From: Candidatus Electronema aureum
GTDB lineage: Bacteria > Desulfobacterota > Desulfobulbia > Desulfobulbales > Desulfobulbaceae
Length of the DNA stretch: 21,483 bases
Assembly: GCA_004284765.1 (NCBI GenBank)
Contig: NQJD01000041.1
Span: 1 to 21,483, forward strand
Direction: 5' to 3'
Under the pieces are notes generated by a model, which ran no database searches, was not told the origin of the DNA, and saw only the letters and a list, made by a program, of their open reading frames with translations. Made by a program: the position numbers and the translations under genes. The first letter of the stretch is position 1. Each line of letters starts with the position of its first letter. Positions 1,886 through 16,573 of this stretch are shown piece by piece.

Positions 1886-2542
1886 ATGATTCTGCATCGG
1901 AAAATTCAGAAGATCAAGAAACGCCTGCTGGCTATCGGCGCGATCGTCGAAGAGCAGGTGGATCTGGCGGTGAAAAGCATCGTCAACCGGGACAGCGAGC
2001 TGGCGCAGAAGGTCATTGACGGCGACGTGGCCATTGACCTGATGGAGGTTGACTTGGAGGAGGAGTGCCTGAAGGTGCTGGCCCTGCATCAGCCCATGGC
2101 CGTTGACCTGCGCATGATCATCGCCGTGCTCAAGATCAACAGCGATCTGGAGCGGATCGGCGACTTGGCCGTGGACGCGACCGAGCGGGCCATCGCCTTG
2201 GTCAATCAGGCACCGATTGATTTCCCGTTCGACTTCACGACCATGTCTCAGGCCGTGCAGAAGATGCTCAAGCAGAGCATCGACGCGCTGATCAATCTCG
2301 ACATGGACTTGGCCATGCAGGTCTGCGCCTCAGACGACGCGGTGGATGCTATGCACGCTGAGGTGTACCGCCGGGTTGAAGAAGCAATTCTCCAGCACCC
2401 TGAAGATATTAAGCAAGAGCTGACCTGCCTAAGCGTGTCCCGTTATTTAGAGCGGATCGCTGATCACACCACCAATATTGCCGAGGATGTTATTTATCTG
2501 ATTCAAGGCAATATTGTCCGGCATCAGGACACGATTTACTGA
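1886..2542 (+). CDS. phoU: Phosphate signalling complex protein PhoU (218 aa)
   Basis: The two PhoU repeats carry the conserved metal-binding helices NSDLERIGDLAVD and SRYLERIADHTTNIAED. The gene lies downstream of pstB. Confidence 0.9.
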   Translation: MILHRKIQKIKKRLLAIGAIVEEQVDLAVKSIVNRDSELAQKVIDGDVAIDLMEVDLEEECLKVLALHQPMAVDLRMIIAVLKINSDLERIGDLAVDATERAIALVNQAPIDFPFDFTTMSQAVQKMLKQSIDALINLDMDLAMQVCASDDAVDAMHAEVYRRVEEAILQHPEDIKQELTCLSVSRYLERIADHTTNIAEDVIYLIQGNIVRHQDTIY

Positions 2543-2551
2543 TCTGTTTAG

Positions 2552-2590
2552 GAGTTCATCTACGGAGGATGAACTCTAATTCATATTTAT
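2552..2590 (+). terminator. Probable intrinsic terminator of the pstB-phoU unit
   Basis: A 9-bp stem GAGTTCATC (2552-2560) / GATGAACTC (2568-2576) encloses a 7-nt loop. It is followed by the T-rich TAATTCATATTTATT and starts 10 nt after the phoU stop. Confidence 0.6.
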
Positions 2591-2607
2591 TCCTGAGAGT
2601 GTAGATC

Positions 2608-4236
2608 ATGAAAAAATCCGTCTTGCTTCCTCTTGCTTTTTTGTGCCTTTTACTACCGAAACACTCCACAGCAGTTCCTGCATACCCTGAACCAGTTGAT
2701 TTCAAACAACCTGATGGAAGCCACGTCAATATCAAAATGTTCGGCGATGAACATTTTAATCGCGTTGAAAGCCTTGATGGTTATACACTTTCGGTGAACA
2801 ACAAAGGATTTTATGAGTATGCAATAAAAAATCAACAAGGAGCCTTAGTTCCCTCTGGCATTGTTGCAAAGAATGCGGTAAGCAGAACCGCAGTTGACAA
2901 CAGCTTACTTGAGAGAACGCCGAAAAATCTTCGGCTTAATCCTGATCAGGTCAATATGCTGAAACAGGTTGAAGCCATCTATGCCACTGAACAGCAACGG
3001 CAGGCATTCCCAACCACAGGGAACCGCAAACTGCTGTGTATTTTGATTGGATTTACTGACCGTTCCTTTACTAAAAGCAAAGCTGATTTTGAAAATCTGT
3101 TCAATCAGATCAAGTATACAACTGATGGGGCAACAGGAAGCGTTAAAGATTACTATTTGGAAAATTCTTGGGGAAAGCTGAACTTGGATGTCACTGCGGC
3201 TGGACCGTACATCGCATCAAACTCTATGGCTTATTACGGTGCAGACAGCGGTGCTTCTAAATTTCCGCGTGCAAGAGACCTTATTAATGAAGCCGTTAAT
3301 GCCGCTGATACTGATGTTAATTATGCTGATTTCGATAATGACAACGATGGTGTAGTTGATGGTGTGTATGTAATCTTTGCAGGGTACGGCCAAGAGGCAG
3401 GAGCTTCAACCGATACTATCTGGTCTCATGCTTGGGCAATCGATCCAGTTGAGCTTGACGGCAAAATAGTTTACAGTTACTCCTGCTCACCCGAACTTCG
3501 GGGAAACTCTGGTGCAGGCATCACCCGCATCGGGGTGATTTGTCATGAATTTGGCCACGTCATGGGTGCGCCTGATTTCTATGATACCGACTATGAGACG
3601 GGAGGTGAGTATGAAGGAACAGGAAGATGGGATTTAATGGCGGGCGGCACATGGAACAACAGTGGTGCCACCCCTGCACATCATAACGGTTTCACCAAAT
3701 CGTACTATTATAAGTGGACTTCAATGATTGAACTCGTTCCTGATCGTGAAGTTTCAATGCCAAAGATTGAAACAAATGAAGCAGTATATTCTTACGCTTC
3801 GCCGACAGCAGGTGAGTACTGGGTCTTGGAGAATCGTCAATTATCAGGATTCGATTCGTCTTTACCTGGGCATGGTTTACTTGTTTACCATGTTGACGAG
3901 AATAATATCATAAAGAACGAATATGATATCAATTCAACGCATCCGCAATACATGTATCCGGTTTGCGCTGGCGCAGCAATGAATCCATCTTCTGATCCCG
4001 CATCTTACGGTACAATCAACAGTGGAATTTGCTCTTTTCCCGGAACTATCGGGAAAACTGCTTTTACATATTCCACTTTCCCCGCAGCAATATCTTGGGC
4101 AGGTCAGCGTTCAAATAAAGCGATAACTGGGATTACCGAGATAGATGGTAGTGTAACCTTTGACTTCAATCTCAGCGAACCACCTCTGCCGAAAAGCAAT
4201 CCTGCGGCAGCAGCAATTATCAAGCTGCTGCTCTAA
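2608..4236 (+). CDS. Secreted M6-family (immune inhibitor A-like) zinc metalloprotease (542 aa)
   Basis: Signal peptide MKKSVLLPLAFLCLLLPKHSTA. The M6 N-terminal block PEPVDFKQPDGSHVNIKMFGDEHFNRVESLDGYT is present, as is the HEXXH zinc site ICHEFGHVMGAPDFYD. GC is visibly lower than in the flanking pst and asnB genes. Confidence 0.8.
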   Translation: MKKSVLLPLAFLCLLLPKHSTAVPAYPEPVDFKQPDGSHVNIKMFGDEHFNRVESLDGYTLSVNNKGFYEYAIKNQQGALVPSGIVAKNAVSRTAVDNSLLERTPKNLRLNPDQVNMLKQVEAIYATEQQRQAFPTTGNRKLLCILIGFTDRSFTKSKADFENLFNQIKYTTDGATGSVKDYYLENSWGKLNLDVTAAGPYIASNSMAYYGADSGASKFPRARDLINEAVNAADTDVNYADFDNDNDGVVDGVYVIFAGYGQEAGASTDTIWSHAWAIDPVELDGKIVYSYSCSPELRGNSGAGITRIGVICHEFGHVMGAPDFYDTDYETGGEYEGTGRWDLMAGGTWNNSGATPAHHNGFTKSYYYKWTSMIELVPDREVSMPKIETNEAVYSYASPTAGEYWVLENRQLSGFDSSLPGHGLLVYHVDENNIIKNEYDINSTHPQYMYPVCAGAAMNPSSDPASYGTINSGICSFPGTIGKTAFTYSTFPAAISWAGQRSNKAITGITEIDGSVTFDFNLSEPPLPKSNPAAAAIIKLLL

Positions 4237-4247
4237 TAATAAAAAAG

Positions 4248-4271
4248 GGGAGCTTCTTGCCGGAAGCTCCC
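4248..4271 (+). terminator. Hairpin just after the M6 protease stop (possible terminator)
   Basis: GGGAGCTTC (4248-4256) / GAAGCTCCC (4263-4271) form a stem with a 6-nt loop. The hairpin is preceded by an A-run and followed only by TT, so it has no proper U-tract on the + strand. Confidence 0.4.
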
Positions 4272-4342
4272 TTAGTACACAGCACCTACCTTGCTTTCCC
4301 TTCCCGCCTCGCAGTAAAAAACAGTCCGTTTACGCAAAACTG

Positions 4343-4372
4343 TTCGCCATTACTGTCGCTGCCTGCTATAAT
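4343..4372 (+). promoter_or_regulatory. Candidate sigma70-type promoter for asnB
   Basis: A perfect TATAAT sits at 4367-4372, 52 nt upstream of the asnB ATG. The -35 is weak: TTCGCC at 4343-4348 with an 18-nt spacer. Confidence 0.3.
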
Positions 4373-4423
4373 TTTTGCAGCGGCACGGAGCCGGTTTTCA
4401 CAACAATCACAACACGAAAGATC

Positions 4424-6292
4424 ATGTGCGGCATCTGCGGTTTCAACTGGAATGACGAGGGCCTGATCAAGGCGATGGCCGAGACCATTGCCCACCGGGG
4501 GCCGAACCAGAAGGGCAGCTTCTGCTGCGACGAGATGTCGCTCGGCTTCCGGCGGCTGTCGATCATTGACCTGAGCGAGCAGGGCCGCCAGCCGATGTTC
4601 AACGAGGACAGCACGCTCTGCCTCGTTTTCAACGGCGAGATCTACAACTTCCAAGAGCTGCGTCCTGAGCTGGAGCAGAAGGGCCACATCTTCCGCAGCG
4701 AGACGGATTCAGAAGTCATCCTCCACGCTTACGAGGAGTGGGGCGACGACTGCGTGCATCGGCTGCGCGGCATGTTCGCCTTTGGCCTCTACGACCAGCG
4801 GCGCAAACGGCTGCTGCTGGCCCGCGACCGCATCGGCATCAAGCCGCTCTATTACTCTTGGCAAAACGGCAAGCTGCGTTTCGCTTCGGAGATCAAGGCC
4901 ATCCTCGCTGATCCGCAGGTGGAGCGGCGCATCAACCAGCAGGCCATGTACGACTACCTCGGCTTTGAGTTTGTGCCTGCGCCGGAAACCATGTTTGCGG
5001 GCATCCACAAACTGCCAGCTGGACACCTGCTGGTCTTGGAGAACGGGCAGATCAACACCCGGCAATACTGGGATTTGCAGTTCCGTCCCGGCCAGAACCG
5101 GCTCTCCTTCCCAGAGGCGGTGGAGCGGATGCGCGAGCTGTTGGATCAGGCGGTTGCCAGCCATTTGGTCAGCGACGTGCCGCTCGGTGTCTTCCTCTCT
5201 GGTGGGCTGGATTCGAGCTGCATTGTCGCCCTGATGCGCAGGCACATCAGCGGGCCGCTCAAAACCTTCACCATCGGCTACAAGGACAAGTCCTACAGCG
5301 AGCTGGACTACGCCCAGATCGTCGCTGACCACTGCCAGACCGAGCACCAGGTGCTGCTGCTCGACAGCCTCAAGCCAGACTACGTGGAGCAGACGCTCTG
5401 GCACCTTGACGAGCCAATGACCGACCTGTCGACGGTGCCGCTTTATCTGCTCTGCAAGCAGGCCAAGGAGCAGGTCACGGTCTGTCTGTCGGGCGAGGGC
5501 GCGGACGAGAGCTTTGCTGGCTATGACCGCTTCAAGGCCAGCCGCATGAATGAGTGGTTCAGCCTGCTGCCGGGTGTTGTGCGCAAACAGGTGGTGGGGA
5601 GAATGGCGGCTCTGCTGCCGGATCAGCCGCAGAAGAAGGGAGCGGTCAACGTGCTCAAGCGCTTCATTGAGGGCGCAAACCTTGACCCGGCAGGCCAGCA
5701 CCTGCGCTGGCAGTATTTCCTCAATGAGTCGCTGGCGGGCAAGCTCTTCAGCAGCGGCTTCCGCAGCGCAATCACGGCTGACCCGTTCCGCCTTGTGCGC
5801 GAACACAACGCCCGCTGCGACGCAGGCAACGACCGCATCAACCGGGAGATTTACTTAGACACCCGCTTCATGATGACCGACTCGGTGTTGATGAAGGTGG
5901 ACCGGATGTCCATGGCCAGCTCGCTGGAAATCCGCGTGCCGCTGCTCGACCACGTGCTGGTGGAGTTCATGGCCTCGCTGCCTGGTGACTGGAAGCTGAA
6001 GGGCATGACCACGAAGTACATCTTCCGCGCCGCGCTGGAAGGACTGCTGCCGGAGAAGATCGTGCACCGGGGCAAGCAGGGCTACAGCCTGCCAGTCAAG
6101 CACCTGCTGCGGGGGGAATTGAAGGGCTACATGATTGAGCTGCTCAATGATTCAGCCGTGATCCGTGAGAACATGAATCTGGCCTACGTCAACCAGCTCA
6201 TCGAGGAGCATTGCAGCCAGCGGCACAACCATAACCACATCCTCTGGGCCTTACTCAATATCGCCATCTGGCATAAGAGGTTCTTCAGGTAA
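4424..6292 (+). CDS. asnB: Asparagine synthase (glutamine-hydrolysing), AsnB family (622 aa)
   Basis: The N-terminal MCGICGF gives the Cys2 nucleophile of class II Ntn amidotransferases. The PP-loop VFLSGGLDSS is present, along with the asparagine-synthase blocks LSGEGADE and MASSLEIRVPLLD. The ORF-track start at 4160 overlaps the protease 3' end and the hairpin, so it is rejected. Confidence 0.85.
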   Translation: MCGICGFNWNDEGLIKAMAETIAHRGPNQKGSFCCDEMSLGFRRLSIIDLSEQGRQPMFNEDSTLCLVFNGEIYNFQELRPELEQKGHIFRSETDSEVILHAYEEWGDDCVHRLRGMFAFGLYDQRRKRLLLARDRIGIKPLYYSWQNGKLRFASEIKAILADPQVERRINQQAMYDYLGFEFVPAPETMFAGIHKLPAGHLLVLENGQINTRQYWDLQFRPGQNRLSFPEAVERMRELLDQAVASHLVSDVPLGVFLSGGLDSSCIVALMRRHISGPLKTFTIGYKDKSYSELDYAQIVADHCQTEHQVLLLDSLKPDYVEQTLWHLDEPMTDLSTVPLYLLCKQAKEQVTVCLSGEGADESFAGYDRFKASRMNEWFSLLPGVVRKQVVGRMAALLPDQPQKKGAVNVLKRFIEGANLDPAGQHLRWQYFLNESLAGKLFSSGFRSAITADPFRLVREHNARCDAGNDRINREIYLDTRFMMTDSVLMKVDRMSMASSLEIRVPLLDHVLVEFMASLPGDWKLKGMTTKYIFRAALEGLLPEKIVHRGKQGYSLPVKHLLRGELKGYMIELLNDSAVIRENMNLAYVNQLIEEHCSQRHNHNHILWALLNIAIWHKRFFR

Positions 6293-7906: not shown

Positions 7907-10627
7907 TCACCTACCCAGTAAAAGAGCGCTTCGGTCCGATATAGTCATTGGAATGATTAGCCTCACCACTATCTCCATTGCTTCTTCCTTGCTGCTGACC
8001 TCGCCGTTAAGCTGGGCCTCCAGCACCTGATTGAGCAAGGTGCGGAAGCGCGGGCCAGGCTGCAAGCCCAGTTCAAGCAAATCCTGTCCGCTGATTAACG
8101 GTCTGACATCGCGCAGATTGGTCACATAGTGAGAAACCGCCTGCTGGATGTATTTTTTCCGCGCAATCACCATGAGATAAAGCAAGCCTTCATTATCTAT
8201 ATCACGCAGCAGCCAGTAGATTTCGCTCGCCTTGAGCAAGGGGCGGCGCAGCATCTCAGCAGCAATGTGCTCGGCCTTGCTTTTCCGTTCTATAAGATGC
8301 TTGCGGTGCTTGGGTGGCACCTCAAAACGGTCGCAGAAGTGGCGCAGTTCTACGTCTCGTGAGCGACTGAACAAGGCTAAGAGGCGCACGCTCCAGAAAT
8401 CGCAATGCTTGTTGGTTTCAGGTAGATAGAGAAACCTGAACCATGAGATGGCCTTCTCCGCTTGGGTCATCATATAGGAAAAGCGGCGGTCAATCTTTAG
8501 GTTTGGGCGCAGATCAGGCCAGAGAAGCGGAAAGAGACCAAAGCCCTCCAAGCGTCGCAATGCAATGAGCGGATTGTCTTCCGAGAGAATACGACGCAGC
8601 TCATTAAAGAAACGAAGACCAGTGAACTGTTCACGCATGTGCATCTGCACTGCGTTGCGAATTAGCTTCTCCGAATGCTTGGTGATACGGAAGTCTAAGC
8701 GTTGCTCAAAGCGTATAGCGCGAAATATACGAGTAGGGTCTTCAACAAAGCTGAGGTTGTGCAGCACTCTGAGCTGACGTTCTTTCAGATCATTCTGGGA
8801 GCTGAAGTAATCAACTAAGAGACCGAAGCGATCAGGGTTGAGATGCACGGCCATTGCATTCACCGTGAAGTCGCGGCGGAAAAGATCAAGTTTGAGTGAA
8901 CTCTTCTCAACTATCGGCAGGGCAGCAGGTGCAGCGTAGTATTCTAATCGTGCAGTAGCTACATCGATCTTCATGCCGTTGAGTAACGTGACTGTAGCAG
9001 TAGCAAACTTCTCGTGTGTGCGTACAGTTGCTTGCTTTGTAGCAGCAAAGGCTTGCGCAAAGACAATACCATCTCCTTCTACGACGATATCAATATCAAG
9101 ATTGCGGGTTTGCAAGAGCAAGTCGCGGGCAAAACCACCGACCACGTAGGCACGCATCTCAACAGCGTTTGCAATTTCACCAAGCTCGCGCAGCAGGAGG
9201 ATGATTTCTCTGCCTAAGGTATCAACCATCAAGCGAGTGATGTTGCGACTACGTTCTGCTGAAGGATGCTCGTCCTGTCTGAGCAAGCTACGTGACTGAC
9301 GATGAGGATCATGCACCAGCAGATTGAGCAGATCGGTACGCGTAATCACGCCAACAATGCTTGCCTCATCATTCTCTTGACGAACAATAGGAATCAATCG
9401 TTGATGATGTTCAATAATCAGGTCTTGAATATCGGCTTGTGTCGCGTTCTCTGACAAGGTTTCGATTTCTGTACTCATGTAGTCGCCCACTGCTACAGCA
9501 CCGAGCTGATGAGCAATCGCCTTTTCCACGACCCGACGTGAGATTAAGCCAAGTAAACCCTTAGGATACGCCTTGTTTGTGTTATCGCGCACCACAGGAA
9601 GTCCGGTGAGACTATAGCGGGTAAGTAGCTCGCTGGCCTCGTTCATACTGATCTCTGGCGTAGCGGTAATCACTGGTGATGACATGATTTCTTTCGCCAA
9701 AGCCTTAGGACGAATACAGCGATACAACAAGTGCAGCAGCTCTTCTTCTGCCTCAAAGATGGTCTTGTTGGCAATCACAGCAGAGGCAGCCGAGGCATGG
9801 CCACCACCACCAAAGGCACGGGCAATTGTTCCGGCGTTGACTTCAGGAATACGACTACGGCAGATTAAATACAGTCGCTCGCCCATGCAAACCAAGGAAA
9901 AGACCGCATCTAAATTCTCCATGACCATCATTCTCCGCACTAAAGCAGAAAAGTCGTCAGCATAGTCAGGCAACGTTAGCCTGCTGATTGTTACTTGTAT
10001 CGACTGAATGGTATAGACGGCTGAATGCTTGAGCAGCTGGCTGAGAAGTGAAACCTGTGCGGCAGAAAGATCGTGGCTAACAAAGTGATTCACCACATTG
10101 AGCTTGGCTCCTTGTGCTAACAACCACGCTGCTGCTTGCAGATCAGCGGGCGTAGTGCCCGTGTAGAGAAAGGAGCCGGTATCCTCATGAATACCGATGC
10201 TCATCAGCGTGGCTTCGTCCGCAGTCAGGATGATGTTTTGCTCTTGAAAGATGCTGACAAAGATAGAAGTGGTGGAACCAAGCAGTTCTACATGCTCGAA
10301 GTCGCCGCGTAGATCACCGGGCGCATCGGGGTGGTGGTCGTAGAGGTGAAGCTCTAAGCCGGGGTTGCACAGGCATTCTTGCAGCCGATCAAGGCGGTCA
10401 GGCTGACGGGTGTCCACCACGATCAGGCGACGGACGGAAGTTAGGTCAAGGTTCTTGAGCTTCTTGAAATCGTATAGATTGCGGAGATCAGCAGAAAGGA
10501 ACTCGCCTATCCGCCGCTCGGCAGCACCAGCAAAGACCAGCACCGCGCCGGGATAGAGCTTTCGGGCCGCGATCATTGAGGCAAGGCCGTCAAAGTCGGC
10601 GTTGACGTGGGTGGTGATGATGTCCAT
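7907..10627 (-). CDS. Multidomain DHH/DHHA1 phosphoesterase - CBS pair - poly(A) polymerase/CCA-adding (tRNA nucleotidyltransferase) family protein (906 aa)
   Basis: DHH motifs HVNADFDGLAS, VVDT and LYDHHPD are present. The DHHA1 motif is GGGGHASAASA. The CBS region contains IMSSPVITATP and IPIVRQ....IVGVITRTDLL. The nucleotidyltransferase head is YVVGGFARDLLL...LDIDIVVEG, followed by the RRDFTVNAMA and FVEDPTRIFRAIRF blocks of the PcnB/Cca family. Confidence 0.8.
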   Translation of the reverse strand: MDIITTHVNADFDGLASMIAARKLYPGAVLVFAGAAERRIGEFLSADLRNLYDFKKLKNLDLTSVRRLIVVDTRQPDRLDRLQECLCNPGLELHLYDHHPDAPGDLRGDFEHVELLGSTTSIFVSIFQEQNIILTADEATLMSIGIHEDTGSFLYTGTTPADLQAAAWLLAQGAKLNVVNHFVSHDLSAAQVSLLSQLLKHSAVYTIQSIQVTISRLTLPDYADDFSALVRRMMVMENLDAVFSLVCMGERLYLICRSRIPEVNAGTIARAFGGGGHASAASAVIANKTIFEAEEELLHLLYRCIRPKALAKEIMSSPVITATPEISMNEASELLTRYSLTGLPVVRDNTNKAYPKGLLGLISRRVVEKAIAHQLGAVAVGDYMSTEIETLSENATQADIQDLIIEHHQRLIPIVRQENDEASIVGVITRTDLLNLLVHDPHRQSRSLLRQDEHPSAERSRNITRLMVDTLGREIILLLRELGEIANAVEMRAYVVGGFARDLLLQTRNLDIDIVVEGDGIVFAQAFAATKQATVRTHEKFATATVTLLNGMKIDVATARLEYYAAPAALPIVEKSSLKLDLFRRDFTVNAMAVHLNPDRFGLLVDYFSSQNDLKERQLRVLHNLSFVEDPTRIFRAIRFEQRLDFRITKHSEKLIRNAVQMHMREQFTGLRFFNELRRILSEDNPLIALRRLEGFGLFPLLWPDLRPNLKIDRRFSYMMTQAEKAISWFRFLYLPETNKHCDFWSVRLLALFSRSRDVELRHFCDRFEVPPKHRKHLIERKSKAEHIAAEMLRRPLLKASEIYWLLRDIDNEGLLYLMVIARKKYIQQAVSHYVTNLRDVRPLISGQDLLELGLQPGPRFRTLLNQVLEAQLNGEVSSKEEAMEIVVRLIIPMTISDRSALLLGR

Positions 10628-10724
10628 CTGCCCACTTTACTCGATTTGGCGGGGAGTCGCAGTATTTTGTAACGTTTTCAGACTGAACGTGACTCAGGAA
10701 AGACCACTTGAAAAATCTTCCCTT

Positions 10725-10757
10725 TTCATCGTGCTTTCATCCTCCATCTGGTAATTT
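10725..10757 (+). promoter_or_regulatory. Promoter P-A1: direct repeat TTCATC-N5-TTCATC plus extended -10 (TGG TAATTT)
   Basis: The sequence is TTCATCgtgctTTCATCctccatcTGGTAATTT, with hexamers at 10725-10730 and 10736-10741 and TGG-TAATTT at 10749-10757. The same architecture and spacing recur at 11230 and 11731. It ends 74 nt upstream of the ATG at 10831. Confidence 0.65.
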
Positions 10758-10830
10758 TTAAAAAACAAGGACAGGGCTGCATAGCTTTAGCTCTCAATCA
10801 ACAAACGGTATCACGAAAAGGAAATTCATC

Positions 10831-11145
10831 ATGAACAAACTAACAACAGGATTAATCGCCAGTATTTTGTTTACATTCATGGCGTTTAGCTCGGCAAGTG
10901 CAGGTAGGGATGACAGATATGAGCATCATGAACGTCATGATTACCGTAACGACAGGCATGATAATCCATATTCATCCAGTGTCTATATCCATCGTAATAA
11001 TGGTAGATACAGGGATCGTGACCGGCATGGATATAATCACAATCGGTACAGCCACAACGACAACTACCGTAGGAGCCATGACGGTTACAGGCAACACAAC
11101 AATATTGGCTATGGCCACGATATGCATAAACGATATGAGCATTGA
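10831..11145 (+). CDS. Secreted low-complexity His/Arg/Asp/Tyr/Asn-rich protein, family A (A1, 104 aa)
   Basis: Signal peptide MNKLTTGLIASILFTFMAFSSASA is followed by an 80-aa chain. By hand count it has 13 His, 15 Arg and 11 Tyr, with no Cys and almost no aliphatic residues. The RBS is AAAGGAAA. The signal peptide and the HER(H/Y)(D/E)Y..N....NPY motif are shared with A2. Confidence 0.7.
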   Translation: MNKLTTGLIASILFTFMAFSSASAGRDDRYEHHERHDYRNDRHDNPYSSSVYIHRNNGRYRDRDRHGYNHNRYSHNDNYRRSHDGYRQHNNIGYGHDMHKRYEH

Positions 11146-11229
11146 CGATAGAAATTCTCATTATCATCTGGAGGCATAAAACAGGCATCAGCAAATCAAG
11201 CAAGCCAGTCGTTAAAAAAAACATATTCA

Positions 11230-11262
11230 TTCATCTTCTGTTCATCTTCCTTCTGGTAGATT
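11230..11262 (+). promoter_or_regulatory. Promoter P-B1: direct repeat TTCATC-N5-TTCATC plus extended -10 (TGG TAGATT)
   Basis: The sequence is TTCATCttctgTTCATCttccttcTGGTAGATT, with hexamers at 11230-11235 and 11241-11246 and TGG-TAGATT at 11254-11262. It ends 63 nt upstream of the ATG at 11325. Confidence 0.65.
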
Positions 11263-11324
11263 AAAGACAGAAGGAAAGAGAACAGTAGCACAACTAACAA
11301 ACCACCAAAAAAGGAGACCTCATC

Positions 11325-11672
11325 ATGAAACGCGCATTCTTTCTACTGGCAGCTGCTATCACCTTATCCGCCGGAGCAGCAGAAGCAAGTCGGCATGAAT
11401 ACGGATACGGATACGGATACGGCAGAGGATATGGCTACGAAAGCAGGGCAAAATTTTATGGCACGGTTGATGCCATGCCTCAGACTGGTTTTAACGGTGT
11501 ATGGATGGTGAACGGTCGGCAGGTTATGATTACTCCCAGCACCAGAATTAAAGAAAAGTACGCCAGACTTGCTCTTGGTTCCTATGTTGAAGTGGAAGGA
11601 TATCATTCCAATGGCGGCTTCACGGCGTATGAAGTCGAAGTGAAAGGCGGAAGACAGTACGGCTACCGGTAA
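11325..11672 (+). CDS. Secreted protein, family B (B1, 115 aa): YG-repeat linker plus one ~65-aa DUF5666-like domain
   Basis: Signal peptide MKRAFFLLAAAITLSAGAAEA is followed by the linker SRHEYGYGYGYGRGYGYESRA. The domain is KFYGTVDAMPQTGFNGVWMVNGRQVMITPSTRIKEKYARLALGSYVEVEGYHSNGGFTAYEVEVKG. The RBS is AAGGAG. The DUF5666 assignment rests on pattern recollection, not a search. Confidence 0.75.
   Translation: MKRAFFLLAAAITLSAGAAEASRHEYGYGYGYGRGYGYESRAKFYGTVDAMPQTGFNGVWMVNGRQVMITPSTRIKEKYARLALGSYVEVEGYHSNGGFTAYEVEVKGGRQYGYR
11399..11422 (+). repeat. Perfect hexanucleotide tandem repeat (ATACGG)x4 inside B1, encoding the YGYGYGYG tract
   Basis: Read directly: four exact in-frame tandem copies at 11399-11422. 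Confidence 0.9.
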
Positions 11673-11686
11673 GCCGTCTCTACGAA

Positions 11687-11716
11687 CAGGAGGGATTGGG
11701 AAAAAAATCTCTCCTG
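11687..11716 (+). terminator. Hairpin after B1 (weak terminator candidate)
   Basis: CAGGAGGGA (11687-11695) pairs with TCTCTCCTG (11708-11716) with one G-U pair and a 12-nt loop. A-rich sequence follows rather than a U-tract. Confidence 0.3.
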
Positions 11717-11730
11717 AAAAATAAGGTAGT

Positions 11731-11763
11731 TTCATCTTCTGTTCATCTTGCATTTGGTAAATT
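11731..11763 (+). promoter_or_regulatory. Promoter P-A2: direct repeat TTCATC-N5-TTCATC plus extended -10 (TGG TAAATT)
   Basis: The sequence is TTCATCttctgTTCATCttgcattTGGTAAATT, with hexamers at 11731-11736 and 11742-11747 and TGG-TAAATT at 11755-11763. It ends 54 nt upstream of the ATG at 11817. Confidence 0.65.
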
Positions 11764-11816
11764 AGATAATAAGCAAGGAACAGCAGCTTTCATCCAAAGA
11801 CAAAAGGACTCTTATC

Positions 11817-12158
11817 ATGAAGAAGATTGGATTAGGACTCATTGGCAGTGCTTTGTTTGCATTCATGGCAGTTAGCTCGGCACAGGCAAGTAAGCATGAG
11901 GGGTACGAAGATCACGAGCGGTATGAATACGGCAACCGTTATTACAACCCCTACGGATATACCAATTATGATTACAACAATCAGTACCGTAATCATGAGC
12001 AGTATGAGCATAGCAACAATAGGTATAATACCTACAATCCTTACAACGGCACGTATGGTTCTGTCTATAACAATGGCTATACGTACAACAACGCCTCCAA
12101 TGCTTATGGTTACAACAATAACTACAGGCATCATGAGCGGTATGAATACCACCACTAA
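11817..12158 (+). CDS. Secreted low-complexity Tyr/Asn/His-rich protein, family A (A2, 113 aa)
   Basis: Signal peptide MKKIGLGLIGSALFAFMAVSSAQA is homologous to that of A1. By hand count the 89-aa mature chain has 23 Tyr and 19 Asn. It is bracketed by His/Glu motifs, HEGYEDHERYEY at the start and YRHHERYEYHH at the end. The RBS is AAAGGA. Confidence 0.7.
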   Translation: MKKIGLGLIGSALFAFMAVSSAQASKHEGYEDHERYEYGNRYYNPYGYTNYDYNNQYRNHEQYEHSNNRYNTYNPYNGTYGSVYNNGYTYNNASNAYGYNNNYRHHERYEYHH

Positions 12159-12189
12159 TATCGCCATCTGAGTAGGCACAGAAATATCG

Positions 12190-12226
12190 TCACGGCTCTG
12201 AAGATGGCCACTCTTCTGAGCCGTGA
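12190..12226 (+). terminator. Long hairpin after A2 (probable transcript end or stabiliser)
   Basis: TCACGGCTCTGAAGA (12190-12204) pairs with TCTTCTGAGCCGTGA (12212-12226). This is a 15-bp stem with one central T-T mismatch and a 7-nt loop. No U-tract follows. Confidence 0.45.
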
Positions 12227-12351
12227 TACAAGAACAGCTTCGTGACGGGTATTTCCTGTATATAGAAAAGATGCAATTTATCATTTTCTACATCATGCTT
12301 TTCAAACATCCGCATGATGTGCAGCGTACATCATAAAAAGGGGAAAAAACT

Positions 12352-12666
12352 ATGAAACGTGCATTATTTCTACTGGCCGCAGTCTTGGCATTGTCAACTG
12401 GGCCAGCACAGGCAGATGACGATGATGACAGAGAACACCATACCAGCAGTGCTAAATTTTATGGCACAGTCGAAGCATTGCCTCCGTCAGTCAGGAATGG
12501 TATTTGGTGGGTAAATGGTAGGGAAGTGATAGTGAGTCCCAGAACGAAGATAAAAGAAAAGCGCGGCAGCATTGCTGTCGGAGCTTATGTTAAAGTGGAA
12601 GGCTATCTCTCCGGCATTGGATTAGCAGCTGATGAAATTGAAATCAAGGGCAGTAGAAGACACTAA
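12352..12666 (+). CDS. Secreted protein, family B (B2, 104 aa): poly-Asp/His linker plus one DUF5666-like domain
   Basis: Signal peptide MKRALFLLAAVLALSTGPAQA is followed by the linker DDDDDREHHTSSA. The domain is KFYGTVEALPPSVRNGIWWVNGREVIVSPRTKIKEKRGSIAVGAYVKVEGYLSGIGLAADEIEIKG. The RBS is AGGGGA. Confidence 0.75.
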   Translation: MKRALFLLAAVLALSTGPAQADDDDDREHHTSSAKFYGTVEALPPSVRNGIWWVNGREVIVSPRTKIKEKRGSIAVGAYVKVEGYLSGIGLAADEIEIKGSRRH

Positions 12667-12775
12667 ATCCTGATTGAAAAAATTCAGCAGATCAACTAAA
12701 TTTACATTTTGCTTCTTGATTAAGAAACAAGGTGGGCAGCACAACAACCCGATTGTCCAAAAGGAGGACATCATC

Positions 12776-13378
12776 ATGAAAAAGGCATTTCTTTCGTTGG
12801 CAGCAATTTTGGCATGTGTATCAATAACGACAGCAGCTCAAGCCAGTCGGGATGAATATTATGAGCGTGGTGAATACGGCGAGCGTTATGAAGGACGCGG
12901 CTACGATGACGGTGGCAGACGCTATGAAGAAAGCAAATTTTACGGCACAGTAGAAGCAATACCACAAGGCGGTCGGGATGGCATTTGGCGAATCAGCGGC
13001 CGCGATGTTGTGGTCAATCCGAATACGTTTATTAAAGAAGAATACGGCAGAATGGGAATCGGCGCACAAGTTGAAGTAAAAGGTGGCGGTGCTCCTTTCA
13101 TGGCGTATGAAATCGAAGTCAAGAGCGGCAGCAGAGCAATGGGCAACGCTCCTGTGATGAATGGTGGAATAAAGTTTTATGGTCCCATTGAGGCTATGCC
13201 CCAAGGTGGTTTTCTCGGCACTTGGCGGGTTGGTGGTCGGGACGTCCTTGTCACCCAGAACACCTTTATCAAACAAGAATACGGCAGAGTTGCCCCTGGT
13301 GTGCAAGTGGAGGTGAAAGGTAGCGGTACTCCTTTTGTTGCCTATGAAATTGAAGTCAAAGGTGGTACCATGCGCTGA
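12776..13378 (+). CDS. Secreted protein, family B (B3, 200 aa): Glu/Tyr/Arg/Gly linker plus two tandem DUF5666-like domains
   Basis: The start ATG at 12776 follows the RBS AAGGAGG (12761-12767). Signal peptide MKKAFLSLAAILACVSITTAAQA is followed by the linker SRDEYYERGEYGERYEGRGYDDGGRRYEES. Domain a runs KFYGTVEAIPQGG...AYEIEVKS and domain b runs KFYGPIEAMPQGG...AYEIEVKG. Confidence 0.75.
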   Translation: MKKAFLSLAAILACVSITTAAQASRDEYYERGEYGERYEGRGYDDGGRRYEESKFYGTVEAIPQGGRDGIWRISGRDVVVNPNTFIKEEYGRMGIGAQVEVKGGGAPFMAYEIEVKSGSRAMGNAPVMNGGIKFYGPIEAMPQGGFLGTWRVGGRDVLVTQNTFIKQEYGRVAPGVQVEVKGSGTPFVAYEIEVKGGTMR

Positions 13379-13391
13379 TTTTTTCAGTGAG

Positions 13392-13420
13392 CCTACAAGA
13401 GTAATTTTTACTCTTGTAGG
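13392..13420 (+). terminator. Perfect 13-bp hairpin after B3
   Basis: CCTACAAGAGTAA (13392-13404) pairs with TTACTCTTGTAGG (13408-13420) around a 3-nt loop. It is preceded by TTTTTT and not followed by a U-tract. Confidence 0.4.
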
Positions 13421-13457
13421 CAGAACTTCAATGATCACGAGCAAGGAAAAAGGTATC

Positions 13458-13811
13458 ATGAGGAATAGATTATTTTTGTTTGCCGCAGTTTTTGTTGTTT
13501 TTACAGGGGCAGCTCAGGCCGAAGAAAGCGGTCAAAAAAATCAGCTCAAGCAGCATCATTACCAGCCAGGTCAAGGATACGAGCAGGAACCTGAATATAA
13601 ATTTTCTGGTCGAATCACAAAAATTCCTGAAAATTCCTTGTCAGGTATCTGGGTTATTAATAATGATCGCCAAATTGTTGTTTCACCAACCACGAACATC
13701 AAGCAGGAGAATGGTAAGGCGATTGTCGGTGCCTCTGTTGCAGTGAAAGGTGTGCTGCAAGGAAGCAACTTCATGGCCACTGAAATTGAGGTTACGACTG
13801 ACATCCCTTGA
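13458..13811 (+). CDS. Secreted protein, family B (B4, 117 aa): divergent DUF5666-like domain
   Basis: Signal peptide MRNRLFLFAAVFVVFTGAAQA is followed by the linker EESGQKNQLKQHHYQPGQGYEQEPEY. The domain is KFSGRITKIPENSLSGIWVINNDRQIVVSPTTNIKQENGKAIVGASVAVKGVLQGSNFMATEIEV. Confidence 0.7.
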   Translation: MRNRLFLFAAVFVVFTGAAQAEESGQKNQLKQHHYQPGQGYEQEPEYKFSGRITKIPENSLSGIWVINNDRQIVVSPTTNIKQENGKAIVGASVAVKGVLQGSNFMATEIEVTTDIP

Positions 13812-13865
13812 TCACCGCTTGTTTCTCTCTCAAAAGCACCTTAATTCATTCAATCAGCAAATATT

Positions 13866-14471
13866 ATGATGAATAATCAGCAAGATGAAATTCAAAATGG
13901 CAACGCTCGTCTTGCCAATCCCATCCGCTTTTGGCATATAGCGATAATTGTCCTCGCCTTGGCCGCTTTGTTGACCGGCGATTTGGCAGATGACTACAAG
14001 AAGGTTGAACATGTCGGTTTCCTTTTGCACAGCAACATCGGCGTGGCCGTATTCCTCACCCTCTGCTTCTATGTTGCCTACGGACTTTTCGGCCCACAGG
14101 AATTCCGTCTCTCGCGCTGGTTCCCTTTCACCAAAGAACGGCTGCGGCAAACTGGCAAGGATTTGGTCATGCTCACTAAATTCAAGCTGCCAGAACACAA
14201 GCGGCGGCAGGGATTAGCTGGATTGGTGCAATTTTTCGGCATCTTAGTCTTTTCTTGGCTTGCGACCACCGGCACCTTGATGTATTTTCTCATAGAGCCG
14301 GGGAGCAAGGCGCAGGGTTTCGTCCGCGCGGTCAAAGAGGCCCATGAAGTTGGCACTGCGCTGATTCCAGTTTATCTGGCTTTGCATATCGGAGCGGTGC
14401 TTGCACATTCGCTGACTGGACAGCACGTTTGGAAGGAAATCTTTTTCTTCAAAAATAGCACGATTGAATAA
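13866..14471 (+). CDS. Membrane b-type cytochrome, cytochrome b561 / Ni-Fe hydrogenase cytochrome-b-like family (201 aa, about 4 TM)
   Basis: There are four hydrophobic helices with His at helix ends in the family-typical layout: RFWHIAIIVLALAALLTGD, GFLLHSNIGVAVF, and KEAHEVGTALIPVYLALHIGAVLAH. The length is about 200 aa. The assignment rests on pattern recollection. Confidence 0.6.
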   Translation: MMNNQQDEIQNGNARLANPIRFWHIAIIVLALAALLTGDLADDYKKVEHVGFLLHSNIGVAVFLTLCFYVAYGLFGPQEFRLSRWFPFTKERLRQTGKDLVMLTKFKLPEHKRRQGLAGLVQFFGILVFSWLATTGTLMYFLIEPGSKAQGFVRAVKEAHEVGTALIPVYLALHIGAVLAHSLTGQHVWKEIFFFKNSTIE

Positions 14472-14486: not shown

Positions 14487-15161
14487 ATGAAAATTCTGGT
14501 GGTGGAAGACGACAAGCGGTTAGCTGCCTTAGTGAAACGAGGGCTGGAGGAACATGCCTTTGTCGTTGATCTGTGCTATGACGGCGAAGAAGGGCTGTAT
14601 CAGGCCGAAACTTCTCCTTATGACGCGATTGTACTGGATGTGATGATGCCTAAGATGGACGGCTTCACTGTACTACGCAAGCTGCGCGAGCAGGGCAGAG
14701 AAGTACCGGTGATTATGCTCACTGCCAGAGGCGAGGTGGAAAATCGGGTCAAAGGGCTGAACACCGGCGCGGATGATTATTTAGCCAAACCCTTTGACTT
14801 TGCTGAACTGATTGCCCGACTGACCGCAGTGATTCGGCGGAACAAGGGACAAGCTGCCTCGCAGCTGTGTATTGCTGACCTCCACATTGATCTGAACGCT
14901 AAAACCATCGGCAGAGCGGGTATCGATATCCCGCTTTCCGCCAAAGAATACGCCATCCTTGAATATCTCGCCCTGAACAGAAATCGGGTAATTAGCCGCA
15001 CTGAGCTGTCTGAGCATGTTTATGACATGAATTTCGATCTCGACAGCAATATCATTGATGTTTATATCAACCGCTTGCGCAGAAAAATCGATAAAGATCG
15101 TGATCAGCCGCTGATTCAGACCAGAAGAGGCGAAGGCTATATCATTCGTGATGAGGCATAA
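14487..15161 (+). CDS. OmpR/PhoB-family response regulator, CusR/CopR-like subfamily (224 aa)
   Basis: The receiver domain shows MKILVVEDD, phospho-acceptor AIVLDVMMP, MLTAR and AKPF. The winged-helix C-terminus VYDMNFDLDSNIIDVYINRLRRKID...IQTRRGEGY closely resembles the CusR block WDMNFDSDTN.IDV...RLR.KID. Confidence 0.85.
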   Translation: MKILVVEDDKRLAALVKRGLEEHAFVVDLCYDGEEGLYQAETSPYDAIVLDVMMPKMDGFTVLRKLREQGREVPVIMLTARGEVENRVKGLNTGADDYLAKPFDFAELIARLTAVIRRNKGQAASQLCIADLHIDLNAKTIGRAGIDIPLSAKEYAILEYLALNRNRVISRTELSEHVYDMNFDLDSNIIDVYINRLRRKIDKDRDQPLIQTRRGEGYIIRDEA

Positions 15162-15163
15162 TC

Positions 15164-16573
15164 TTGGTACGTTCGATCAAAGGCAGGCTGCTCCTCTGGA
15201 TTTTCATCTCCATGACTGCTTTATTTGCCGCGTTAGGTTACGCGTTGCATTTTAAGCTCCATTACGTGGTGGAAGATTCAGTAGATAAGATGCTTCATGC
15301 CAGCTTGCAGTTTGTGAAAGGTTTAGTCCATAGTCATGATGGAAAAAATATCGAATGCGAATCGAATGAATTTATGCAAGGTGACTACATCACCCCTGAT
15401 TCAGGCCATTATTACCAAGTCTTCCTTAATGGAGAACTACTCGCAGCAGCAGATTCTCTGTTTGATAAAAATTTTAATCTCACTCCCGGCAAAGCAGAAT
15501 CGTACAATGCCAAAGCTCAGGAGTGGCTGTATCATTCAATAGGTCCTAACGACGAACCACTGCGGGTTATTCAGCATGATTTTGTCTATATGGATACGCC
15601 AGTGCGTGTAATTGTTGCCGAAAATATCAGCGAAAGCCTGCTTCTTATCCATCAGCTTATCAATTACTTCTTGCTTATTGTGCCGGTGATGATTGTTTTG
15701 ATCGGCATGATCAGCTTGGTCATTGCTGAGGTTTCACTGCGGCCTGTGCAGCATTTTTCCGCTGCCTTAGAGAAGATCAGCCACAAAAATTTAGAAGAGC
15801 GGATTCCAGTAAATAAACAAGCACGAGAGCTGCGCAGGCTGGCGGAGAAGTTCAATTCATTGCTGGAGCGACTGCACCGCGCTTTCGAGGCAGAAAAAAA
15901 TTTGCTCGGCGATGCTGCCCATGAGTTGAAAACCCCGCTGGCAGTCATCAAAGCGGAATGTGACATCGCCTTGCAGCGAGAACGAACAGCGGAGCAACAC
16001 GCGGCCAGCTTGAAAAACGTGCGGGAAGTGACGAATGGAATGCTCGGTCAGATCAACGGACTCCTGACCCTGACTCGGCTTGATTCTGGCTTGCTCGATG
16101 CTTCAGCCTTTGAACCGATTTCACTCACTGATTGCGTGGAGGATGCGGCCTTGTTAGCCAAGTCTTTAGCTACAAAGAAGAACGTTGCTATCAGTTCCTC
16201 ATTGAACGGTGAACTGAGCGTACTGGGTGATCAAGACAGTTTGACTGAAGCGGTGCTGAACTTAGTTGAAAATGCGATAAAATACAATCATCCCGGTGGA
16301 TTTGTTGCCGTGGAGTTAAACCGCCGGGACAACAAAGCGGAAATCAAGGTCAGCGACACCGGCATCGGCATCAGCGAGCAGGATCAAGAGCGCATCTTTG
16401 ACCGTTTCTACCGCTCTGACGCTGCCCGCAGTAGCCAAGACGGCAGCGGTCTTGGTTTAAGCATTGTGCAAGCAATTGTGCAAGCCCATCACGGCGAGAT
16501 TGCTGTTGAAGCGCAAAGCACCGGTGGTAGTCGTTTCACGATCACACTGCCTTTGGTGACAAAGACCGTTTGA
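15164..16573 (+). CDS. Sensor histidine kinase (469 aa): two TM helices flanking a ~130-aa periplasmic domain, then HAMP, HisKA and HATPase_c
   Basis: TM1 is LLLWIFISMTALFAALGYAL and TM2 is YFLLIVPVMIVLIGMISLVIA. The H-box is AAHELKTPLAVI, the N-box is LVENAIKYN, G1 is DTGIGI and G2 is GSGLGLSIV. The TTG start at 15164 lies 2 nt after the response-regulator stop, and its N-terminus SIKGRLLLW is typical of this kinase class. Confidence 0.85.
   Translation: MVRSIKGRLLLWIFISMTALFAALGYALHFKLHYVVEDSVDKMLHASLQFVKGLVHSHDGKNIECESNEFMQGDYITPDSGHYYQVFLNGELLAAADSLFDKNFNLTPGKAESYNAKAQEWLYHSIGPNDEPLRVIQHDFVYMDTPVRVIVAENISESLLLIHQLINYFLLIVPVMIVLIGMISLVIAEVSLRPVQHFSAALEKISHKNLEERIPVNKQARELRRLAEKFNSLLERLHRAFEAEKNLLGDAAHELKTPLAVIKAECDIALQRERTAEQHAASLKNVREVTNGMLGQINGLLTLTRLDSGLLDASAFEPISLTDCVEDAALLAKSLATKKNVAISSSLNGELSVLGDQDSLTEAVLNLVENAIKYNHPGGFVAVELNRRDNKAEIKVSDTGIGISEQDQERIFDRFYRSDAARSSQDGSGLGLSIVQAIVQAHHGEIAVEAQSTGGSRFTITLPLVTKTV

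Follow-up and report, generated by a model that had tools for sequence, protein, structure and literature searches.

Tyrosine-rich exported proteins with a repeated HExxE motif in Candidatus Electronema: a lineage-restricted family that may act as an inducible periplasmic cation sponge

We analyzed a stretch of 21,483 nucleotides (nt) from Candidatus Electronema aureum (contig NQJD01000041.1 of assembly GCA_004284765.1, positions 1 to 21,483 of the forward strand; in the following called the window) and found two of its genes, A1 and A2, to belong to a small, unannotated and lineage-restricted family of predicted Sec-exported proteins. What this analysis newly defines is a secreted family marked by a distinct short linear motif, the precise set of genes that accompany it (for OB-fold proteins with DUF5666, for a cytochrome b561 and for a two-component system) and a cis-regulatory box, conserved from Electronema to Geobacter, that links all of these. 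The best-supported mode of action resembles, by analogy, a known kind of system: the A proteins may form an inducible periplasmic cation buffer, or “sponge”, similar to SilE with His, Glu and Tyr as ligands. We hold this reading tentatively and rank it first because the combination of a disordered repeat-motif protein, OB-fold proteins and a heavy-metal-like two-component system parallels SilE, SilF and SilRS. To our knowledge, no pure culture of a cable bacterium has been obtained so far, and for most envelope proteins specific to this lineage a function has not been assigned.

Both open reading frames (ORFs) lie on the forward strand where the initial annotation of this DNA had placed them. 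A1 (10831–11145) encodes a precursor of 104 amino acids (aa) with a mature part of 80 aa and an isoelectric point (pI) of about 9.4, and A2 (11817–12158) a precursor of 113 aa with a mature part of 89 aa and a pI of about 6.2. Each begins with a Sec signal peptide of 24 aa, consisting of a Lys-rich start, a hydrophobic core and an AxA cleavage site; the mature ends were set by cutting after ASA in A1 and after AQA in A2. The compositions previously counted by hand match ours exactly, with 13 His, 15 Arg, 11 Tyr, 10 Asp and 10 Asn in mature A1 and 23 Tyr and 19 Asn in mature A2. It had also been remarked that neither protein contains Cys or a hydrophobic core, and this stands: both mature chains are free of Cys and Trp and have just four (A1) and one (A2) Ile, Leu, Val, Met or Phe residues, among them a single Met in A1 and none in A2.

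The proposed paralogy of the two genes was borne out at several levels. Their signal peptides are identical at 15 of 24 positions, the local alignment of the mature parts has a z-score of 4.6 (one of 2000 composition-preserving shuffles reached its score), and the DNA is 70% identical over the first 135 nt, from the ribosome-binding site to the N-terminal motif (repeat family D2). An AAAAGGA-type ribosome-binding site lies ~8 nt upstream of the ATG in both. Compared with a close relative (locus L001), A2 has a ratio of nonsynonymous to synonymous substitution rates (dN/dS) of 0.30, and since folded neighbor genes show 0.07–0.11, the value points to selection that is purifying yet relaxed, the usual pattern for disordered proteins. 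It is scarcely conceivable that the ORFs are chance products of low-complexity DNA or that a different frame is translated. Other long ORFs do exist at 10886–11230 and 11832–12284 on the reverse strand and at 11842–12171 on the forward strand, but a ribosome-binding site, a signal peptide and a conserved family were found for the annotated frame only. A family of at least eight clusters at 50% identity that retains both termini despite length changes, and the dN/dS of 0.30, also speak against this possibility; the long ORFs in other frames are by-products of biased codon content. Judged from sequence, A1 and A2 are confirmed as real, paralogous genes for Sec-exported proteins, and the signal peptides support the prediction that both reach the periplasm.

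Single-sequence searches with A1 and A2 returned only three and one homologs, respectively. The initial annotation had named a lack of homologs with conserved signal peptides as a result that would speak against its reading; an alignment-based profile search instead gathered about 45 A-family proteins of 100–120 aa that keep the signal peptide and both termini. Lengths have changed many times within the family, yet the reading frame is kept all the way from signal peptide to C-terminal motif, and A1 itself matches the family hidden Markov model (HMM) with E = 2.5e-27. With HMMER, an exhaustive search through 1.84 billion representative proteins yielded just eight A-family clusters. Every match with a named source belongs to Candidatus Electronema or to “Desulfobulbus sp. 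F5”, whose protein is a partial copy of A1 with 98% identity. The family has so far turned up in cable bacteria of the freshwater type only.

The distribution of the family was surveyed by a genome scan seeded with the neighboring cytochrome b561, followed by HMM searches; the scan was built on two peptide patterns, and loci may have been missed. In this survey, A genes were found in five Electronema genomes and one Desulfobulbaceae metagenome-assembled genome (MAG), and HMM searches did not find them in Electrothrix sp. YB6, another Desulfobulbaceae MAG, Geobacter or a gammaproteobacterial MAG. Despite having no A gene, Electrothrix sp. YB6, the second Desulfobulbaceae MAG and Geobacter carry DUF5666 genes adjoining the cytochrome gene; none were detected in the gammaproteobacterial MAG. 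Searches of A1 and A2 against Pfam-A and NCBIfam gave nothing at E ≤ 0.1 except one spurious 16-bit match, and the family profile had no match among PDB sequences at E ≤ 10. The literature that we searched, including work on nickel homeostasis, the conduction machinery and sulfur genes of cable bacteria, did not mention the family or its gene cluster. By these searches, the A family is without detectable homology to anything characterized.

Some details of membership were noted along the way. One candidate, P0042 (218 aa), was dropped as a compositional false positive from an unrelated context. The A gene at L014 5179–5394 is broken by masked or unknown bases, which leaves the A copy count of that locus uncertain. 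A 55-aa lipoprotein with the lipobox VTGC is encoded between two A genes in two relatives (L003 700–867 and L004 9665–9832; proteins P0041 and P0045), whereas the window has none. Its short mature part is rich in His, Asp, Arg and Tyr and bears HERYEH motifs, and it is by these features a membrane-anchored mini-version of the A proteins.

Mature A-family proteins consist on average of 24% Tyr, 14.5% Asn, 13.7% Gly, 9.5% Arg, 8.3% Glu, 5.5% His and 5.4% Asp. Three places are conserved within the family: the signal peptide, an N-terminal block (SGDDxYEYGERYEHGRYYNPY) and a repeated motif, Y-R-N-H-E-x-Y-E-[Y/H]-G, which contains HExxE flanked by Tyr and occurs in two to four copies per chain (motif peptide GYRNHERYEYGR). 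The last copy lies at the extreme C-terminus and is followed by (G)YRR. A logo of 169 instances from 42 proteins gave Y59 R38 N41 H51 E76 x Y75 E91 [Y63/H37] G56 (in percent), and in the family alignment the columns of the motif His and the second Glu are at least 90% conserved. Members of the family have two to six ExxE copies. A2 has five, compared with 0.6 expected, and none of 5000 shuffles reached this count or the count of the full motif. The suggestion that His/Glu clusters resembling HExxH point to metal coordination can be kept in part. A strict HExxH is absent from both proteins, and HExxE occurs four times in A2 and once in A1; the enrichment and conservation of this motif, together with a two-component system of heavy-metal-like type, make metal coordination by the A proteins plausible.

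Disorder had been expected for both proteins, and the structure prediction agrees. AlphaFold2, run on A2 with a 47-sequence alignment, returned only the helix of the signal peptide; every mature residue had a predicted local distance difference test (pLDDT) score below 50, and no secondary structure was predicted in the mature part. On the strength of this model and their composition, A1 and A2 appear to be intrinsically disordered. The description of the proteins as prion-like and Asn/Tyr-rich, in contrast, did not hold as a family trait. The best 60-aa window of A2 consists to 73% of Asn, Gln, Ser, Gly and Tyr with five charged residues (73–75% over windows of 40–60 aa), and the longest uncharged run, made of Asn, Tyr and Gly, extends over 34 aa. 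A1 has 18 charged residues per 60 aa and failed as a prion-like core. The spacers between the motifs are Asn/Tyr-rich in A2-like, His/Arg-rich in A1-like and Pro/Val-rich in other members, so that only Tyr richness and the motifs are conserved. Because the spacers vary this widely, the prion-like look of A2 is best described as the local state of a fast-evolving spacer and not as a property defining the family.

All A genes with visible surroundings lie next to DUF5666 genes on the same strand. In the window, this module has the order A1, B1, A2, B2, B3, B4, cytochrome b561, response regulator and sensor kinase, all on the forward strand. B1 (11325–11672; Pfam PF18914, E = 9e-11), B2 (12352–12666; PF18914, dN/dS 0.07) and B4 (13458–13811; PF18914) encode exported DUF5666 proteins with an OB fold, and B3 (12776–13378) encodes an exported protein with two such domains. 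The low-complexity linker between signal peptide and OB domain differs for each paralog, being YGYGYGYGRGYGY in B1, DDDDDREHH in B2, SRDEYYERGEYGERYEGRGY in B3 and YQPGQGYEQEPEY in B4. B1 ends in GYR, as the A proteins do. The B3 linker contains the A-family motif, and linkers of B3 type generally carry ERYE[H/Y]. The A-family HMM matches B3-type N-termini at E = 1e-5 to 1e-11 (7.5e-6 for B3 of the window), and a DNA-level repeat joins A2 and B3 (repeat family D1). The shared motif, the HMM matches and this repeat suggest a common origin of the A proteins and the B3 leader and linker.

In the AlphaFold2 model of B3, two five-stranded β-barrels with pLDDT values of 80–93 follow a disordered N-terminal linker. 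A fold search with this model led to OB folds, with CusF, IF1, S1 and cold-shock (CSD) domains among the matches. CusF was among the best single-domain matches to DUF5666 (target template modeling score, TM-score, of 0.60–0.65; root mean square deviation 2.3–3.0 Å), and DUF5666 shares with CusF and SilF the form of a small five-stranded periplasmic β-barrel. The resemblance is, however, at the level of the fold only, with 13–15% sequence identity and equally good matches to IF1 and cold-shock domains. The His/Met/Trp site by which CusF binds Cu(I) is not conserved in DUF5666, and Pfam assigns these proteins to DUF5666 and not to CusF. The literature mentioning DUF5666 gave no function for it; proteins with this domain can be among the most abundant of a related sulfur bacterium (PMC13490349).

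The three genes that complete the module encode a membrane cytochrome b561 (13866–14471; PF01292) with at least seven His invariant among its orthologs, an OmpR-family response regulator (14487–15161) and a sensor histidine kinase (15164–16573). The best models for the latter two are both of the heavy-metal kind: TIGR01387 (CztR/SilR/CopR) ranked first for the response regulator with 252.1 bits (cut-off 279.2), and TIGR01386 (CztS/SilS/CopS) for the kinase with 251.2 bits (cut-off 292.55). The periplasmic domain of the kinase has an E-x-E-x-x-E motif and several His in all orthologs; this motif, an SGHY sequence and other His are kept from Electronema to Geobacter. In the periplasmic domain of the window's kinase (15164–15763), the motif lies within IECESNE, and all cable-bacterial orthologs have this single Cys within E-x-E-x-x-E, with Leu in its place in Geobacter.

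Upstream of A1, B1 and A2, we detected a 34-nt element composed of TTCATCTTnnGTTCATCTT, a gap of 7–8 nt and TGGTAnnnT. At A1 (10725–10758, forward strand, as are the following two) it consists of TTCATC-N5-TTCATC and then TGGTAATTT, which resembles an extended −10 element (repeat family D7); at B1 (11230–11263) of TTCATCTTCTGTTCATCTT and then TGGTAGATT; and at A2 (11731–11764) of TTCATCTTCTGTTCATCTT and then TGGTAAATT, conserved in L001. Such boxes precede A and B genes in 20 loci. A relaxed pattern occurred 33 times in both strands of the 249 kb of collected loci, compared with 0.16 expected occurrences; all 33 copies are on the coding strand, and in 31 cases an A or B gene follows directly. 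These cases include the first DUF5666 gene of three Geobacter loci (L016 6707, L018 6713 and L019 2195). The Geobacter module comprises DUF5666 genes, cytochrome b561, response regulator and kinase and has no A genes, which makes the cis-element older than the A family.

Sites for PhoB/OmpR-type activators are typically laid out in this way, with a direct repeat of 11-bp period in place of the −35 element and next to an extended −10. We predict that the A genes and some DUF5666 genes each have their own promoter. Since box and module occur together across families, we infer that the module's own response regulator, encoded 2.5 kb downstream, binds the box and switches these genes on. A generic scan for promoters and terminators found no more than in shuffled sequences and missed the direct-repeat box as well as a hairpin after A2 (12191–12225, forward strand; CACGGCTC ... 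GAGCCGTG). This hairpin has no T-run, is conserved in L001 and is possibly a transcript end or stabilizer. An Rfam scan of 10500–14000 gave two sub-threshold chance matches only, and therefore no riboswitch or leader is evident in this region. B2 has no direct-repeat box; in its upstream region lies a perfect 8-bp inverted repeat (12291–12319; CATCATGC-N13-GCATGATG). It is mostly conserved in L001, was not seen in more distant Electronema and may serve the operon that extends from B2 to the kinase as an operator of its own.

In L001, the A1 gene and its box are missing (window 10627–11150 compared with L001 5258–5500). The flanking tRNA nucleotidyltransferase is 95% identical between the two, and homology resumes right past the stop codon of A1, which marks this gene as a strain-variable gain or loss.

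For the sponge reading, these components would work together as follows. Signaled by the adjacent kinase, the box-bound response regulator would turn on the A genes, whose products would be exported as disordered chains with two to four HExxE motifs as working parts, parted by rapidly evolving spacers. The imidazole of the motif His, the Glu carboxylates and the Tyr phenolates would bind borderline or hard metal ions, with Fe, Zn, Mn, Ni, Co or Cu(II) as candidates, and binding would lower the free ion concentration. Ions might then be handed to the co-encoded OB-fold proteins, and cytochrome b561 might alter their redox state. Such ions abound in freshwater sediment rich in iron sulfide at places that cable bacteria acidify.

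Two of the closest known systems bear on this reading. SilE is a disordered periplasmic “molecular sponge” encoded beside the OB-fold chaperone SilF and the two-component system SilRS (PMC5008109, PMC10407283). The A proteins share with SilE and PcoE the small size, Sec export, periplasmic location, disorder of the protein alone (predicted for A) and short repeated motifs with His, and likewise have genes for an OB-fold protein (DUF5666 in place of SilF or CusF) and for an OmpR-type, heavy-metal-like two-component system as neighbors. They differ from SilE and PcoE in having no sequence homology to them (no Pfam, NCBIfam or PDB match), in a ligand set of His, Glu and Tyr instead of His and Met, in their extreme Tyr content and in that their metal binding is predicted; their cluster has a cytochrome b561 in place of an efflux pump or ATPase. 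The second comparison concerns the motif itself. ExxE is an experimentally supported periplasmic site for Fe(III) or Zn in ColS, PmrB, Ftr1 and HbpS, and the A motif has the same periplasm-exposed (H)ExxE core as PmrB, ColS, VgrS, BqsS, Ftr1 and HbpS (PMC4074579). The kinase adjoining the A genes also keeps a periplasmic ExExxE. In these sensors and transporters, however, the motif belongs to a folded domain and usually occurs once or twice, whereas in the A proteins it is repeated within a disordered chain and flanked by Tyr.

Several observations weigh against a cation sponge. Both the kinase and the response regulator stay below the curated cut-offs of the heavy-metal subfamilies, and kinase residues 1–200 gave a single chance match (E = 0.75) in a phmmer search of PDB sequences, with no relative such as CusS emerging for the sensor domain. 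Transporters for metals, be it an RND pump, a P-type ATPase or a CDF protein, are absent from the cluster. The ligand residues of CusF are not conserved in DUF5666, and candidate Met residues vary among the paralogs. Soft metals, Cu(I) and Ag(I), are unlikely ligands because Cys is lacking and so is Met, apart from the one residue in A1. A1 has one clean HExxE only. Electrothrix sp. YB6 and Geobacter keep the rest of the module but lack the family, and a Tyr content of 24%, far above what a metal site needs, suggests an additional or different role. If the sponge reading is true, the A proteins would parallel the silver and copper sponges, with His, Glu and Tyr instead of His and Met, and would provide the first functional context for DUF5666. 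A further possible metal site, an N-terminal Cu/Ni-binding (ATCUN, X-X-His) sequence in A2 (Ser-Lys-His), was dropped as it is not conserved among homologs.

The two-component system and the cytochrome also bear on a different explanation, namely that the A proteins protect the envelope from stress, either as sacrificial oxidant scavengers by their Tyr and His or as a pH buffer, with induction by an HprRS-like two-component system that senses oxidants or pH, and with cytochrome b561 as redox partner in the membrane. The model for such a role is the HprRS-MsrPQ arrangement of E. coli. We consider it rather improbable, although it accounts for several features. The response regulator scores 208 bits against the HprR model, a b-type cytochrome is encoded within the operon, and the periplasmic Cys of the kinase (ECE) is conserved in cable bacteria only. 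The computed net charge swings from +13 to −3 for A1 and from +3.6 to −14 for A2 between pH 5.5 and pH 10; the pKa is about 6 for His and about 10 for Tyr, and cable bacteria create steep gradients of pH and oxygen. Yet the HprR score is far under the cut-off of 353, the cytochrome belongs to PF01292 and not to the MsrQ family, and no reductase partner such as MsrP was found. A scavenger or buffer would also leave the specific conservation of the motif, beyond composition, unexplained.

Alternatively, the A proteins could be accessories of signaling whose motif peptides bind the periplasmic domain of the kinase or compete for its ligand, in a feedback similar to that of CpxP or ZraP. The A genes appear to be in the regulon of the adjacent two-component system, and the ExExxE of the kinase and the HExxE of the A motif, both acidic-His sites, could share a ligand. 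The membrane-anchored 55-aa lipoprotein version of the motif in relatives would fit such a role, and one publication provides a precedent for such periplasmic accessory proteins (PMC4160245). Nevertheless, this function seems quite unlikely to us: several paralogs with differing spacers and promoters of their own point to a bulk rather than a stoichiometric role, and the module runs without any A protein in Geobacter and Electrothrix sp. YB6.

The unusual composition, finally, raises the possibility of a structural role, in which Tyr and Arg “stickers” and multivalent motifs lead to self-association or DUF5666 binding and form a scaffold in the form of a hydrogel, coacervate or coating. Basic A1 might pair with acidic A2, and metals or pH might trigger assembly. 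Such triggering is familiar from the His/Tyr/Gly-rich proteins of squid beak, worm jaw and mussel foot, and the composition of A2 and A1 resembles that of eukaryotic prion-like or FUS-like low-complexity domains, mussel foot protein 3, squid beak proteins and histatins. A1, like the histatins, is rich in His, Arg and Tyr. The A proteins differ from prion-like or FUS-like domains and from the His/Tyr/Gly/Asn-rich structural proteins in that they have no homology to them, a spacer that is not conserved, a chain interrupted by charged motifs, and a location in the bacterial periplasm. The scaffold is consistent with the high family content of Tyr, Asn, Gly and Arg and nearly no aliphatic residues, with the pI of A1 and A2 on either side of neutrality (9.4 and 6.2) and with the uncharged 34-residue Asn/Tyr/Gly run of A2. 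It is also consistent with the two to four motifs per chain, which recur on proteins with one or two OB domains, and with the strict adjacency of A and B genes. In one publication, Tyr-Arg interactions are proposed to drive condensates (PMC13339138). On the other side, the spacer composition is not conserved, being Pro/Val-rich or His/Arg-rich in relatives; AlphaFold2 did not dock the N-terminal motif of B3 on its OB domains, with an alignment of four sequences only; no assembly or secretion machinery is encoded nearby; and A1 is dispensable in the close relative L001. All in all, we regard the scaffold as unlikely, though less so than the stress and signaling roles.

A bolder version would make the A proteins the material of a regulated periplasmic condensate or hydrogel, flooded in upon a metal, pH or redox signal sensed by the kinase. 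These multivalent chains, rich in Tyr, Arg and His, would be cross-linked by metal-HExxE bridges, by binding to the OB-fold proteins of one or two domains, or by both, and the phase could act as a matrix around the conductive envelope that buffers protons and electrons through Tyr and His. We offer this as speculation with a small chance of being correct. If true, it would be a rare case of regulated phase behavior in the bacterial periplasm and a bacterial counterpart of metal-hardened, His/Tyr-rich animal biomaterials.

The gene list and Pfam assignments of the cluster contain no enzymes for Tyr modification or amyloid secretion. A precursor of a ribosomally synthesized and post-translationally modified peptide, or another tyrosine-modified peptide, was dropped as no modifying enzymes are encoded nearby. 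For a curli- or Fap-type amyloid, no CsgA or Fap match was found with Pfam, and the neighbors are only DUF5666, cytochrome b561 and two-component system genes. That the A proteins form a core part of the conductive fiber was judged unlikely, given that Electrothrix sp. YB6 has retained the module but has no A gene.

The surroundings of the module are shared in part with other genomes. In the window, its upstream neighbor encodes a CBS/DHH tRNA nucleotidyltransferase, and genes for ThiF, carbonic anhydrase and GAPDH follow downstream. Other Electronema genomes have these downstream genes too, along with a small ThiS gene. In Ca. Electronema sp. VV (L004 4475–7985), the A/B cluster comes right after genes for ferredoxin-like, NrfD and cytochrome c7-like proteins, which may correspond to the candidate alternative complex III of PMC11976967. 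Base composition is heterogeneous along the window. The G+C content is 0.43–0.47 at 2001–4500, over a secreted protein gene (2608–4236), and 0.58–0.62 in the flanks (1–2000 and 4500–6000); it is also low, at 0.44–0.45, in the A/B cluster.

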